Shown one piece after another: positions 1,676 through 12,027 of a stretch of 13,445 bases of DNA (within the stretch, counting starts at the first letter, position 1; each line of letters begins with the position of its first letter). Below the pieces are notes generated by a model that was not told the DNA's origin, did no database searches, and saw only the letters and a list, made by a program, of their open reading frames with translations. The position numbers and the translations under genes were made by a program. Source of the DNA: a virus (Duplodnaviria > Heunggongvirae > Uroviricota > Caudoviricetes); IMG/VR virus record IMGVR_UViG_2654587686_000016. One strand, given 5' to 3'.

Positions 1676-1831
1676 TTACTCCTCAGGTTCGTAAGCTGTG
1701 AAGACAGCGACCTCCGTCTGGCCGGTTCGGATTCGTACCTCGCAGAGGTCTTTCCTCGTTACCAGTGCCGTCACTATGACGGTTAAACAGATGACGATCA
1801 GGGCGATTAACATCGCCTTTTGCTGCTTCAT
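1676..1831 (-). CDS. hok: Hok-family type I toxin (51 aa, HokD/RelF-like)
   Basis: Translation MKQQKAMLIALIVICLTVIVTALVTRKDLCEVRIRTGQTEVAVFTAYEPEE matches the Hok/RelF sequence as I remember it: a single TM helix and conserved Cys. SD AAGGAG lies 8 nt upstream of the ATG. The 70-aa ORF in the track is an in-frame over-extension. Confidence 0.85.
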   Translation of the reverse strand: MKQQKAMLIALIVICLTVIVTALVTRKDLCEVRIRTGQTEVAVFTAYEPEE

Positions 1832-2010
1832 AGCCTGCTTCTCCTTGCCTTTCGGCACGTAAGAGGCTAACCTACATGTGCAAAGCATGAAATTGGCCTC
1901 AGATTAATGTTAAGCGTCTTGCCGGACGCGTAATGTTAACTGGGGCTTTTCTCTATCTGCCTTTTGGTGTTCATGCCTGAGGCAGATAGCCTCAAGCACC
2001 CGCAGCAATT
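1832..2010 (-). promoter_or_regulatory. hok mRNA 5' leader with hok-like structural elements; expected location of the overlapping mok frame and the antisense sok RNA (+ strand)
   Basis: The - strand leader contains CTTGAGGCTATCTGCCTCAGG (a tac-like stem) and TAGCCTCTTAC...CAAGGAGAAG just upstream of the hok ATG, resembling canonical hok leaders from memory. The sok promoter and exact RNA ends are not mapped. Confidence 0.45.
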
Positions 2011-2388
2011 CTAACTATCCAATAGATCAATGCCAACCTCTTTTCCTGCAACATCTCTCATCAGAAGTGACCCAAATTCATCCAATCAGCACAAAAGAAA
2101 CATTTAAAGCGTGAATGCTACCGAACGTTCATTTCAATTACATCGTTTTGATTTTTAACAGTTTTCACCTCAACAAATCAAATGGCATTAGCATTCATCA
2201 TGGAAGAAAGACTGATAAAAATGATCATTTTCAATGACTTATGATCACATCGGGTATTGCCAAGTCATTCCTTTTACGCCAGGATACCCACAAGTGAGTA
2301 GTCGAGGAGAGTTTGCCAATTTTTGCGATATAAATTTCAATGTCCGAAGAACCATTAATTGTTAATTGATTCTGTATAAGGTATTAAC

Positions 2389-3486
2389 ATGACAATTTCA
2401 TATATTCCTATTCTGAAAGCGAAACGTTCTGAGTTATCAGCTTTATCGCAGCTATCCATTGAAAAGAAATCAAAAATTTTGCCATTACTCGAAATTGAAC
2501 CAGTGCCAATTGACCCTGATTCAGGTATTGCCTTAAAGAGTTATAACGAGACTCTTATAGAGTTCGGAAAGAAAGTCTCAAAATCTTGCTCAGATATGCA
2601 AGGTGTTTATATTGATGGATTATTAATTGAAGAGCATTTTATTTCTCCTGAAGATCATTACCCTATAATAAATGCGGTTAATCAAGTTAGAGATATGGAG
2701 ATAAGAGTTATTCCTGTCAGTTCACCAACTCGCCCATCTAACTATAAAAGAGCGATTGATGAATTAATGCAGAATGAAATATGCTTGAGATTAACCACGT
2801 TAGATCTGGTTAACCCACAATTAATAACGCATTACATTAATCATCTGGGAATTCCTTTATCAAATATTGATATAATTATTGACTTAAGAGATGAGTTAAC
2901 CGAGGATAAAATTAATTCCGGCGAACTATATACTTTGGCAATGGGATTGATAAACAATCTGGCGCACCTCAATGAATACAGAAAAGTGATTCTTTCTGGG
3001 GGTTCATTTCCTACAGATCTCAGTGATATTTCTGTTGGTCTATATTCTCAACCTCGAATCGAGTGGATTTTATGGCAGAGTTTAATGAATAGAAAAGAAC
3101 TTGCCAGAAATGTGATTTATAGTGATTATGGAGTACAGCACCCCGACTTTAATAGGCTTTCGACGCGATTCCCTAGCGTATCTGCCAGCGTCAGATACTC
3201 TGGAGATAATGACTTTTGGGTATTTCGAGGAAGAGTAGCTAATCGCTTTGGTTATGAACAATATGGTAAACATAGTGAGGATATTCTTGCTCATCGAGAA
3301 TATTCAGGGCCTACATTCTGTGCGGGAGATAGAGACATAGAATATTATGCAAACGAGTATCAAGCCTACAAAGCCAATCCCTCTGGTAACTATAAATTTG
3401 GTAGCCCAGAGGTATGGCGTAGGATTGGGCAAAACCATCACATAACTAAGGTTGTTGAGCAACTCGCCACTCTTTACGGGCTTTAA
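2389..3486 (+). CDS. Uncharacterised 365-aa protein, gene A of an AT-rich accessory cassette
   Basis: Long uninterrupted ORF at about 33-35% GC (counted on two 60-nt samples), with a weak SD (AAGG) 9 nt upstream. Hydrophilic, with no TM segment and no catalytic motif I can name. Preceded by a ~500-bp AT-rich ORF-free region. Confidence 0.8.
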   Translation: MTISYIPILKAKRSELSALSQLSIEKKSKILPLLEIEPVPIDPDSGIALKSYNETLIEFGKKVSKSCSDMQGVYIDGLLIEEHFISPEDHYPIINAVNQVRDMEIRVIPVSSPTRPSNYKRAIDELMQNEICLRLTTLDLVNPQLITHYINHLGIPLSNIDIIIDLRDELTEDKINSGELYTLAMGLINNLAHLNEYRKVILSGGSFPTDLSDISVGLYSQPRIEWILWQSLMNRKELARNVIYSDYGVQHPDFNRLSTRFPSVSASVRYSGDNDFWVFRGRVANRFGYEQYGKHSEDILAHREYSGPTFCAGDRDIEYYANEYQAYKANPSGNYKFGSPEVWRRIGQNHHITKVVEQLATLYGL

Positions 3487-4024
3487 GTTTAACTCGAACA
3501 GCTTCACGAAGCTCGCCAACATCCATACTATTGGCGAGTTTTGACCATAAGACGCGTTTAGGTTTATTTTTCAAATTCTGTAGCTCCCCTACATCACTTA
3601 ATAGGGAAAGCAATTCATCTTTCCAAAGAAGCATTGTTAAGGAAAGTTTGTCCACTTGTGGATTCAACTTGCTAGTTCGAATTGTTTTTAAATGGATACC
3701 TTGCCGTGCACCTTGCGTAACTTGCTTTATCCCCCACCATGATGGAACTATGCTTAAAGCATCATAAAGATGGCAATCAGAGACAACCAAAGTTACTTTA
3801 TCCATCACTGATGAGTAATGTTGCACCTGCGCTGGTAATCTGAGCAAGTTATCACTCTTGCTCTTCAACTCATAACCATGTATAAGCCCATTGATCACTG
3901 CTATATCAGCTCTGCTAGCCCCTAGATTCATCGTAAACTCATCAATGATTAGGGTGTCAGGATCTTTATGATGATCTCTCAGAATCTTGGCATGCACAGC
4001 CTTTCTTACATCAATGTCTCTCAT
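3446..4024 (-). CDS. Uncharacterised 192-aa protein with a PD-(D/E)xK-like nuclease signature, gene B of the AT-rich cassette
   Basis: ORF convergent with gene A, overlapping it by 41 nt at the 3' ends. Motif E29 ... RA-D40-IAVI ... GY-E52-L-K54 fits the D-x(n)-(D/E)xK pattern of a hydrophobic beta-strand followed by ExK. GC roughly 37-40% on two 60-nt samples. Confidence 0.75.
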   Translation of the reverse strand: MRDIDVRKAVHAKILRDHHKDPDTLIIDEFTMNLGASRADIAVINGLIHGYELKSKSDNLLRLPAQVQHYSSVMDKVTLVVSDCHLYDALSIVPSWWGIKQVTQGARQGIHLKTIRTSKLNPQVDKLSLTMLLWKDELLSLLSDVGELQNLKNKPKRVLWSKLANSMDVGELREAVRVKLKARKEWRVAQQP

Positions 4025-4329
4025 ACCATAGTTGCGCTTTCATCGACTCTCTCAAGCCATGATTCTATATCATGGTTCGCATGAATGCCATTTGATATGA
4101 CCAGTGGTTAAACATTGCACAGAAAAGTGGATGTGTATTTTAACAAAAGCAATGACGGCTAACCATGTTGGTATGTCGATAAAATGTTTCAACGTAAGCA
4201 TTATCTGTTCCGCCCTTTCAGACGGCCTCCTGATGTTCTGAGGGTGCAGAATCCCTCCGGTTAAGGGTTTAATAAAAATCGTTTCTGATTTAAATCTTCA
4301 GTATTTAGTTGTTAGTCGGTTTATAGCCT

Positions 4330-4641
4330 TTATGCTTCGGCCTTATTTCTCAGCCATACACAAACCGGGCCATCTTCGGTGTCATGTATTGAACCAATAA
4401 ACCATCCATTGCCCTCTGGTCGTTCCGGTTCCCATGCAGAAATATCAGCATCACACGCATCAAGGTCAGCACATCCTTCATCTCTGAAGCAGAGGACGTA
4501 TTGAAGATTATTTTCCTCCATCCAGGCGTTAAACTCTTCCGTTGAAATATATTCCCGACCGTCACAGAATTTTTCATATTCAGGATGCGTCCAGCAGCCA
4601 TATTCATCACGTACTACTGGTATTTCTTTAATTTCATTCAT
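4330..4641 (-). CDS. Hypothetical phage protein (103 aa), acidic and Cys-containing
   Basis: ORF in the leftward early operon; its start overlaps the stop of the upstream 84-aa ORF by 8 nt, consistent with operon packing. Confidence 0.6.
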   Translation of the reverse strand: MNEIKEIPVVRDEYGCWTHPEYEKFCDGREYISTEEFNAWMEENNLQYVLCFRDEGCADLDACDADISAWEPERPEGNGWFIGSIHDTEDGPVCVWLRNKAEA

Positions 4642-9555: not shown

Positions 9556-12027
9556 ATGAGTAAAGTCTTTATTTGCGCCGCCATTCCGGACGAACAGGCA
9601 ATAAAGGAAGAAGGTGCAGTCGCTGTAGCCACTGCCATTGAAGCCGGTGATGAATGTCGCGCCCGCGCAAAATTTCACTGGCAATTCCTGGAACATTATC
9701 CGGCTGCTCAGGACTGCGCTTATAAATTTATTGTCTGCGAGGATAAACCTGGCATACCCCGCCCTGCCCTCGATTCATGGGATGCTGAATATATGCAGGA
9801 AAACCGCTGGGATGAGGAGTCTGCTTCTTTTGTCCCGGTTGAGACTGAATCCTATCCGATGAACGTCACTTTTGACAAGCTGGCCCCTGAAGTACAGAAC
9901 GCTGTCATGGTTAAGTTCGACACATGTGAAAACATCACCGTTGATATGGTTATTAGCGCACAGGAATTGTTGCAGGAAGACATGGCAACATTCGACGGAC
10001 ATATCGTTGAAGCGTTGATGAAAATGCCAGAAGTTAACGCCATGTATCCGGAGCTTAAGTTGCACGCCATTGGGTGGGTTAAGCATAAATGTATTCCTGG
10101 TGCTAAATGGCCCGAAATTCAGGCAGAGATGCGCATCTGGAAAAAACGTCGCGAAGGTGAACGCAAGGAAACCGGAAAATACACGTCTGTTGTTGATCTC
10201 GCCCGCGCCAGAGCCAATCAACAGTACACTGAAAATTCAACAGGAAAAATCAGCCCGGTCATTGCTGCCATTCATCGCGAATACAAGCAGACATGGAAAA
10301 CACTGGATGACGAACTGGCCTACGCTCTCTGGCCTGGTGATGTGGATGCCGGAAACATTGACGGCAGCATCCATCGCTGGGCAAAAAATGAAGTTATCGA
10401 CAACGGCCGCGAAGACTGGAAGCGTATCTCGGCATCAATGCGCAAACAGCCTGATGCCCTTCGCTACGACCGCCAGACTATTTTTGGCCTTGTCCGTGAA
10501 CGTCCGATCGACATTCACAAAGATCCCGTAGCACTGAACAAATATATCTGCGAATACCTGACGACAAAGGGCGTGTTTGAGAATGAAGAAACAGACCTGG
10601 GCACTGTTGATGTTCTCCAGTCATCAGAAACACAAACTGATGCAGTGGAAACTGAGGTATCTGATATCCCAAAAAATGAAACCGCGCCGGAAGCTGAACC
10701 ATCTGTAGAGCGTGAGGGGCCGTTCTACTTCCTCTTCACCGACAAGGATGGCGAAAAATACGGTCGCGCAAACAAACTTTCTGGTCTGGATAAGGCGCTG
10801 TCTGCTGGGGCTACTGAAATCACGAAAGAAGAATATTTCGCCCGCAAAAACGGTACATACTCAGGTTCACAACAAAATACTGGTGCATCTGACACGACCG
10901 CACAACCAGGGTCAGTAAAAGTTACCGCTGACGAAGTAAACAAAATTATGCAGGCAGCCAATATCAGCCAGCCTGACGCCGATGAACTGCTTGCAGTATC
11001 ACGTGGTGAATTTGTTGAAGGGATTAGCGACCCGAATGATCCGAAATGGGTTAAGGGGATCCAGACCCGCGATTCTGTGAACCAGAACCAGCAAGAAACG
11101 GAACAGAACGACCAGAAAGCGGAACAAAACAGCCCAAATACGCAACAAAACGAGCCAGAAACGAAACAACCTGAACCAGTAGTGCAACAGGAACCGGAAA
11201 AGATCTGCACCGCCTGCGGTCAGAGCGGTGGCGGCAACTGCCCTGATTGTGGTGCGGTGATGGGTGACGCAACATACCAGGAAATATTCGATGGAGAGAA
11301 TCAGCCTGAAGTTCAGGAAAATGATCCGGAGGAAATGGAAGGCACTGCGCATCAGCACAAGGAGAACACTGGCGGCAATCAGCATCATGCCAGCGATATT
11401 GAAACTGGCGAGGCGTCAGATCCCTTAATTAAGGCGAACGGTCATCATAATCTCACATCCACCAGCAGAGCGGGGATTCATCTGATGATCGACCTTGAAA
11501 CCATGGGAAAAAATCCCGATGCCCCGATTATCTCAATAGGTGCAATATTTTTCGATCCGCAAACCGGAGATATGGGACCGGAATTTAGTAAGACTATCGA
11601 TCTGGAAACTGCTGGCGGAGTCATTGATCGGGACACCATTAAATGGTGGCTTAAGCAATCACGCGAAGCGCAATCTGCCATTATGACCGATGAAATCCCG
11701 TTAGATGATGCACTGTTACAATTGCGGGAATTTATCGACGAAAACTCCGGTGAATTTTTTGTTCAGGTCTGGGGAAATGGAGCCAACTTCGACAACACGA
11801 TTTTGCGCCGTTCATACGAACGGCAGGGGATCCCCTGCCCGTGGCGTTACTACAACGATCGCGATGTACGCACAATCGTTGAGCTGGGGAAAGCCATAGA
11901 CTTCGATGCCAGAACGGCTATTCCATTCGAAGGTGAGCGCCATAATGCACTTGATGACGCCCGTTACCAGGCAAAATACGTTTCAGTTATCTGGCAAAAA
12001 CTGATCCCGAGTCAGGCTGATTTTTAA
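9556..12027 (+). CDS. Large exonuclease (823 aa) in the RecE position: C-terminal DnaQ-like DEDDh 3'-5' exonuclease domain, central Q/E/N-rich linker and a CxxC...CxxC zinc ribbon
   Basis: Long ORF with GAGG 9 nt upstream. C-terminal motifs MIDLETMG (Exo I, D-x-E), VWGNGANFDNTIL (Exo II) and HNALDDARYQA (Exo III, H-x4-D) are seen directly. Zinc ribbon CTACGQSGGGNCPDCG at nt 11207-11257. The low-complexity linker has a T-poor DNA repeat at about 11090-11200. Confidence 0.8.
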   Translation: MSKVFICAAIPDEQAIKEEGAVAVATAIEAGDECRARAKFHWQFLEHYPAAQDCAYKFIVCEDKPGIPRPALDSWDAEYMQENRWDEESASFVPVETESYPMNVTFDKLAPEVQNAVMVKFDTCENITVDMVISAQELLQEDMATFDGHIVEALMKMPEVNAMYPELKLHAIGWVKHKCIPGAKWPEIQAEMRIWKKRREGERKETGKYTSVVDLARARANQQYTENSTGKISPVIAAIHREYKQTWKTLDDELAYALWPGDVDAGNIDGSIHRWAKNEVIDNGREDWKRISASMRKQPDALRYDRQTIFGLVRERPIDIHKDPVALNKYICEYLTTKGVFENEETDLGTVDVLQSSETQTDAVETEVSDIPKNETAPEAEPSVEREGPFYFLFTDKDGEKYGRANKLSGLDKALSAGATEITKEEYFARKNGTYSGSQQNTGASDTTAQPGSVKVTADEVNKIMQAANISQPDADELLAVSRGEFVEGISDPNDPKWVKGIQTRDSVNQNQQETEQNDQKAEQNSPNTQQNEPETKQPEPVVQQEPEKICTACGQSGGGNCPDCGAVMGDATYQEIFDGENQPEVQENDPEEMEGTAHQHKENTGGNQHHASDIETGEASDPLIKANGHHNLTSTSRAGIHLMIDLETMGKNPDAPIISIGAIFFDPQTGDMGPEFSKTIDLETAGGVIDRDTIKWWLKQSREAQSAIMTDEIPLDDALLQLREFIDENSGEFFVQVWGNGANFDNTILRRSYERQGIPCPWRYYNDRDVRTIVELGKAIDFDARTAIPFEGERHNALDDARYQAKYVSVIWQKLIPSQADF

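Follow-up and report, generated by a model that had tools for sequence, protein, structure and literature searches.

A short P4 cII-like protein with a predicted PD-(D/E)xK fold and its convergent beta partner in a Rac-like prophage

Among the validated anti-phage systems are Gop-beta-cII and PD-lambda-2. Common to both is a beta gene, usually accompanied by a convergent gene for a cII-like protein, a nuclease by its fold, that overlaps the 3' end of beta. Cells carrying the three-gene clone of P4 gop-beta-cII are protected from lambda and P1, and Gop becomes toxic when beta is missing (PMC9122126); cell death through this system is triggered by phage orf184 (bioRxiv 10.1101/2023.04.06.535777). 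PD-lambda-2 consists of a HigB-like component A, a component B with an Xre-HTH and an M78-peptidase domain, and a beta-like component C (Vassallo et al., 2022), of which the Xre-peptidase is toxic, the HigB-like protein neutralizes it and the beta-like protein is needed for defence (PMC9519451). The published three-gene definition excludes cII, and the validated clone, from ECOR42, reaches just 396 bp beyond the stop codon of beta. This leaves no room for a complete cII gene in convergent orientation together with its promoter, so that PD-lambda-2 presumably defended without cII. In the literature searched, we found neither a published knockout showing that cII is necessary for defence nor experiments showing nuclease activity or toxicity of any member of its family, which is catalogued as sce7726, a name that we encountered only in genome annotations.

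The pair of beta and cII also occurs naked in prophages, as in the DNA described here, a stretch of 13,445 nucleotides from a tailed phage (IMG/VR record IMGVR_UViG_2654587686_000016), which we refer to as the window. Its two genes of interest, A and B in the following, encode a beta protein and a cII-like protein, respectively (Table 1). They resemble the P4 locus, with its layout gop(+), beta(+), cII(-), in that B belongs to the cII family, in that beta and cII are convergent and in that the carrier is mobile and phage-related. However, P4 cII has 264 residues and B just 192, as B does not possess the C-terminal extension of about 80 residues found in P4; P4 encodes Gop, a 133-residue toxin with two transmembrane segments, immediately upstream of beta, whereas the window has no gop; the two P4 genes lie 27 bp apart, with a terminator annotated in between, whereas those in the window overlap by 41 bp; and the pair resides in a lambdoid prophage rather than in the P4 hotspot. 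With PD-lambda-2, the locus shares a protein that matches the beta-like component C, and in many loci of the PD-lambda-2 type, a B-like gene is convergent with beta and overlaps it. By contrast, the HigB and Xre-peptidase genes, which in PD-lambda-2 lie upstream of beta and are co-directional with it, are missing from the window.

These absences were confirmed by targeted searches. A phmmer search with P4 Gop against all open reading frames of the window and of 82 loci returned P4 only, and neither a phmmer search with HigB nor a profile HMM of PD-lambda-2B homologs found anything in the window. Between the hok/sok locus and A (1900-2389), the plus strand has no open reading frame longer than 43 codons.

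Table 1. Features of the window and related loci. Residue n of B occupies positions 4024-3(n-1) down to 4024-3n+1, which puts the start of E29 at 3940 and the end of K54 at 3863.
Feature	Position	Strand	Remarks
Gene A, 365-aa Beta_protein (P4 beta / PD-lambda-2C family)	2389..3486	+	conserved partner of B
Gene B, 192 aa (sce7726 / Phage_P4_cII family)	3446..4024	-	ORF call
41-bp stretch shared by A and B at their 3' ends (antisense)	3446..3486		dual-coding: B residues 180-192, A residues 353-365
C-terminal helical region of B, residues ~125-188	3461..3652	-	conserved W134, E137, R177, K181, R183, W186
Q66-V-Q-H-Y70 of B (QxxxY)	3815..3829	-	helix 63-73, after the ExK strand
Segment with residues 29-54 of B, EFTMNLGASRADIAVINGLIHGYELK	3863..3940	-	coordinates verified by translation
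Candidate sigma-70 promoter for B, ATGGCA-18-TAGAAT	4062..4091	-	consensus scan; ~37 nt upstream of the ATG
hok/mok-type ORF	1676..1888	-	
sok RNA match, RF01794	1826..2001		119.8 bits
Type I toxin-antitoxin locus (hok/sok)	1676..2001	-	
823-aa prophage early-region 'exonuclease'	9556..12027	+	
PD-lambda-2-type loci with convergent cII			L020, L037, L041, L043, L045, L047, L057, L058, L073, L075, L076, L079, L081, L082; L089-L091

Family membership, fold and conserved residues

B is a member of the P4 cII-like family, which is already catalogued. It matches the NCBIfam model NF033832 (sce7726 family protein) at 1.7e-56 with 191.1 bits, well above the cutoff of 70, and covers positions 1-183 of its 184; P4 cII scores 151 bits on the same model. 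The PADLOC model 'cll' matches B at 2.4e-28, and the Pfam family PF26915 (Phage_P4_cII) is assigned, in precomputed annotation, to 120/120 homologs of B among the matches listed. In a direct BLASTP comparison (E = 2e-17), B and P4 cII show 28% identity across 162 positions, and the E, D, ExK and Q residues of the two proteins line up; tblastn searches with B recover satellite phage P4. The family is large, with 5,456 clusters at 50% identity (E<=1e-3) or 1,290 at E<=1e-30, and B is a new, shorter member of it; its longest members (up to 395 residues) show no fused domains recognizable by Pfam.

A is a beta protein: Pfam Beta_protein matches it at 7.2e-52. Its best PADLOC match is PD-Lambda-2_C (1.4e-40, residues 4-362), while the P4-type 'beta' model matches weakly (1.5e-4), and its identity to P4 beta is 23%. 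It is predicted to fold as a TIM barrel. NCBIfam names sce7725 as the neighbor family of sce7726, but we dropped the idea that sce7725 is beta, as its model gives just a weak N-terminal match to beta proteins.

The relationship of B to known nucleases is more distant. A direct HMM search of B against a Pfam set that did not include PF26915 returned no family at E<=1, MmcB-like PF06319 included, and PDB searches at the sequence and profile level, started from B and from its alignment, gave insignificant matches only (CNOT6L and the TAF1 bromodomain, E ~1). Fold comparison alone was informative. An AlphaFold2 model built from 64 homologs has a mean pLDDT of 94.3 and a pTM of 0.89, and displays the helix, three strands, helix and strand of the PD-(D/E)xK core (H3-14, H16-20, E25-32, E37-44, E48-54, H63-73, E76-82, H83-92, E98-104, E110-116), followed by four helices (126-130, 135-144, 156-166, 169-182). 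E29 lies on the first strand, D40 on the second (E37-44), E52-L-K54 on the third (E48-54) and the QxxxY motif on the helix thereafter; the acidic residue and the ExK pair are thus located on the strands where the superfamily has them. In a fold comparison, the top structural matches of this model are exclusively PD-(D/E)xK proteins, the nearest being the MmcB-like protein SPO1766 (PDB 3dnx, PF06319). Can2, NucS, PaqCI, YaeQ, SfsA and SdaI are also among the matches, at identities to B of <=16%.

Relative to MmcB-like proteins such as SPO1766, B is distinguished by an extra helical region at its C-terminus and by its obligate beta partner, and unlike Can2/Card1, NucS/EndoMS, type II/IIS restriction enzymes, SfsA and YaeQ, it carries no CARF, SAVED or other sensor domain. 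The C-terminal region may possibly serve as a DNA-binding module. A published HHpred analysis of P4 cII found MmcB-like PF06319 at 99.76%, along with AHJR-like, NucS and DpnII-MboI proteins (Rousset, 2022, Table S3), and through this supplementary entry the nuclease fold of the P4 cII family has been on record since 2022. As the kinship of B with MmcB is seen only by structure and in that analysis, it reflects a shared fold between related families rather than membership.

A first-pass annotation of the window had proposed a PD-(D/E)xK signature in B on the basis of E29, D40, E52 and K54. Mapping the translation back onto the DNA shows these residues and the span given for them to be exact, and the model bears out the restriction-endonuclease-like core that had been expected. 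In its details, the structure refines or departs from this description: E29 is part of a strand (residues 25-32) and not of a helix, the strand with D40 (37-44) has this residue at its center rather than at its start, and, since the core takes up residues ~1-120, an extra domain is left with about 70 C-terminal residues (~125-188, four helices) instead of ~130. The signature had furthermore omitted Q66-x-x-x-Y70 on the helix after strand 3.

We traced the conservation of these residues in 121 sequences with identities as low as 47% and, subsequently, in 188 distinct sequences from many phyla, P4 cII included. D40, E52 and K54, whose loss in homologs would have spoken against the assignment, are invariant in 188/188, as are N45, S55, D58, R62 and Q66; E29 is invariant in all homologs whose N-terminus is present. 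Position 70 is occupied by tyrosine in 184 sequences, by phenylalanine in three and by asparagine in one. The resulting Q66-x-x-x-Y70 resembles the QxxxY motif typical of RecB/Cas4-type PD-(D/E)xK nucleases.

By itself, the motif carries little information. Of 5000 shuffled versions of B, 50% contain the pattern E-x(5-20)-D-x(8-25)-[DE]-x-K and 80% its reduced form D..[DE]xK, and the full pattern is also found in 4/15 other open reading frames of the window of >=100 residues, which makes the bare motif no better than chance. It is the conservation and the fold that mark it as real. While the shuffles would allow for a chance match in a protein without the nuclease fold, this explanation is effectively refuted by the high-confidence model, the exclusive PD-(D/E)xK affiliation of its top structural matches, the invariant residues and the independent HHpred result. 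We therefore regard the nuclease fold of B as highly probable; catalytic competence is probable as well.

The convergent pair across genomes

To place the pair in a broader context, we inspected 80 loci that encode B homologs in species-representative genomes of many phyla. Of these, 77 possess a convergent beta gene (70/73 when identical copies are collapsed), and two of the three loci without it lie at contig ends. Among 78 beta-cII pairs, 75 overlap at their 3' ends, with a median of 53 bp and a range of 11-158 bp. All overlap lengths are 2 mod 3, such that codon position 1 lies opposite position 1, and the relative reading frame of the two genes is therefore fixed. In the window, the shared 41 bp encode conserved residues of both proteins (K181, R183 and W186 of B; T353, V355, L359 and L362 of A), and no significant RNA structure or terminator was detected in the overlap region. 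Upstream of B, the number of promoter-like sites equals the shuffle expectation, which makes for weak evidence in favor of the candidate promoter.

What lies upstream of beta is far more variable. At 14/77 loci, we found a PD-lambda-2B-type Xre-HTH/M78 peptidase, accompanied by HigB in nine cases and by DUF6932 in others, and some loci have unrelated genes of ~400 codons in this place; in the closest enterobacterial relatives of the window, nothing co-directional precedes beta. Starting from PD-lambda-2B homologs instead, three of four sampled loci possess a convergent Phage_P4_cII gene that overlaps beta, in a sample biased towards relatives of a cII-linked locus. Locus L092 combines HigB, Xre-peptidase and beta without cII. 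Rare solo cII-like genes without beta are found in Myxococcus phage Mx4 (p30; L087, 3492-4061) and in Xenorhabdus koppenhoeferi (L011). Given these exceptions, the linkage of beta and cII is strong, but not absolute.

Further searches of plasmids and phages for PD-lambda-2 relatives returned HigB/Xre-peptidase pairs without beta, or HTH-only matches. Plasmids of Acinetobacter, Paraburkholderia and Limnohabitans (L093-L096), for instance, carry pairs of HigB and an Xre/ImmA-peptidase with neither beta nor cII, which suggests that PD-lambda-2 is a fusion of two separate modules, one a toxin-antitoxin pair and the other beta(+cII). The locus architecture is modular, with different toxin modules joined to a beta(+cII) core. 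The gop-less and HigB-less pair as a conserved core appears to be undescribed in the literature searched, and the same seems to hold for the frame-locked antisense 3' overlap and for the association of cII with PD-lambda-2 loci, which has likely been overlooked.

The sites that the pair occupies vary too. In another E. coli prophage, a related pair lies at a second lambdoid site, between the lysis genes (Rz) and the terminase gene Nu1. In Gordonia phage Powerball, the pair is found near the integrase gene, where the cII homolog is named 'exonuclease' and the convergent gp33 is the beta homolog.

Possible roles of the pair

On balance, we lean towards a reading in which B is a metal-dependent PD-(D/E)xK nuclease and forms, together with A, a two-gene phage-exclusion module. 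Temperate phages and satellites would carry this beta-cII module as an accessory cassette (a 'moron'). The N-terminal ~120 residues of B would constitute an MmcB-like PD-(D/E)xK nuclease domain, with an intact active site composed of E29, D40, E52, K54 and Q66xxxY70, that acts on DNA in a metal-dependent manner, while A would control or license B, or sense for it. The pair might exclude phages via abortive infection or by direct attack, and in P4 (Gop) and in PD-lambda-2 (HigB and Xre-peptidase), the beta(+cII) core would be coupled to added toxins. Taken separately, a defence role of the A-B pair has roughly an even chance of being correct, and the more specific notion that B is the effector under the control of A is put forward only tentatively. 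B is the sole recognizable effector in the window, since Gop, HigB and the Xre-peptidase are absent; on the other hand, the known toxic components in P4 and PD-lambda-2 are Gop and the Xre-peptidase, not cII.

This last point would equally suit a B that is not a killer, but a sensor or regulator. It might bind or nick DNA in a structure- or end-specific manner, and thereby detect phage DNA or control the expression of beta and its neighbors, while the damage is done by A or by a further toxin (Gop or HigB, for example). The historical name 'cII', which refers to clear plaques in P4, agrees with such a role, as does the validation of PD-lambda-2 from a clone unable to hold an intact cII gene, in a system whose defence requires beta. 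Moreover, numerous charged residues at the strand ends of A are invariant, as is typical of enzymes, and transcription of B could modulate A by way of the antisense 3' overlap. Nevertheless, we consider this reading unlikely: conservation of the full catalytic set, QxxxY included, as invariant in 188 sequences is unusual for pure binding, and the window holds no other effector that could do the killing.

A different view of the nuclease is that it serves the DNA metabolism of the phage itself, with B acting as an exonuclease of the MmcB type in repair or recombination and supporting, in concert with A, the replication, recombination or lysogeny of the prophage. MmcB has been described as a chromosomal DNA-damage repair gene. 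Its relative SPO1766 provides the nearest structure to B, phage annotators have labeled homologs of B as 'exonuclease' or 'DNA repair protein MmcB-like', and in the window the pair lies beside genes of the replication region. Yet it is non-essential in P4, its position varies between a site after the replication genes (as here), the lysis-terminase region and the P4 defence hotspot, it is also found in non-phage contexts and beside toxin-antitoxin modules, and its GC content is atypical, all of which makes a housekeeping role in the phage quite improbable. Less probable still is an arrangement akin to restriction-modification, in which the TIM-barrel protein A marks self DNA, in the manner of the DNA transglycosylase DpdA, and B cuts unmarked DNA. 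In contrast to type II restriction-modification systems, B has no cognate methyltransferase gene beside it: no methyltransferase open reading frame was found in 1900-4330, and its sole partner is the TIM-barrel Beta_protein.

Returning to the phage-exclusion module, a bolder version may be proposed, although we deem it rather unlikely as a whole. Beta-cII would then be an ancient, self-sufficient two-gene immune module, made up of a PD-(D/E)xK effector and a TIM-barrel sensor or licensing enzyme, with the expression of the two genes coupled by an overlap whose frame is fixed across phyla. Gop-beta-cII and PD-lambda-2 would represent elaborations of it through added toxin modules, cII would be an overlooked fourth gene of many PD-lambda-2 loci, and the gop-less pair, present in 93 complete E. 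coli genomes, would constitute an unrecognized stand-alone defence system. If the minimal pair indeed defends alone, it offers the simplest handle on beta-family systems, with one nuclease and one TIM-barrel enzyme, and detection rules that require Gop or HigB and the Xre-peptidase miss a widespread system. If it does not, the result is a correct fold assignment within an already named family.

Prophage setting

The segment is 100% identical in 93 of 5,426 complete E. coli genomes and in phage Rac-SA53, whose depositors labeled the two proteins 'CII phage-like protein' and 'beta'. According to the annotation, the setting is a Rac-like lambdoid prophage integrated beside potC/potD; the initial guess of a P4-like satellite, based on the integrase and a large replication-like gene, was accordingly abandoned. 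The surrounding genes encode an integrase, an excisionase, an exonuclease, dicB, repressors, ydaT/U/V-like replication proteins, hok/sok, DUF968 and RusA, and the A-B pair is placed between accessory genes of the replication region and hok/sok. Across the pair and its flanks (2001..4500), the GC content is 0.34-0.42, compared with 0.52-0.55 on the left, DUF968/hok side, which is in keeping with an accessory insert acquired by horizontal transfer. The defence or toxin role that the first-pass annotation had envisaged for a nuclease in an accessory island fits this low-GC insert in a Rac-like prophage, and also the occurrence of homologs in or next to gop-beta-cII and PD-lambda-2.

Some features of the surroundings deserve mention in their own right. 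Gene A is directly adjoined by a type I toxin-antitoxin locus, composed of a hok/mok-type open reading frame and a match to sok RNA. While no insertion sequences surround the pair in the window, two IS1203 copies bracket it in E. coli RM9131 (L001, 10242-11455 and 14240-15453), and an IS1 element lies just upstream of B in phage Rac-SA53 (L088, 5070-5835). Lastly, the large 'exonuclease' of the prophage early region looks, from its sequence, like a DnaQ/DEDDh-type 3'-5' exonuclease at its C-terminal end (MIDLETMG...HNALDDARY).
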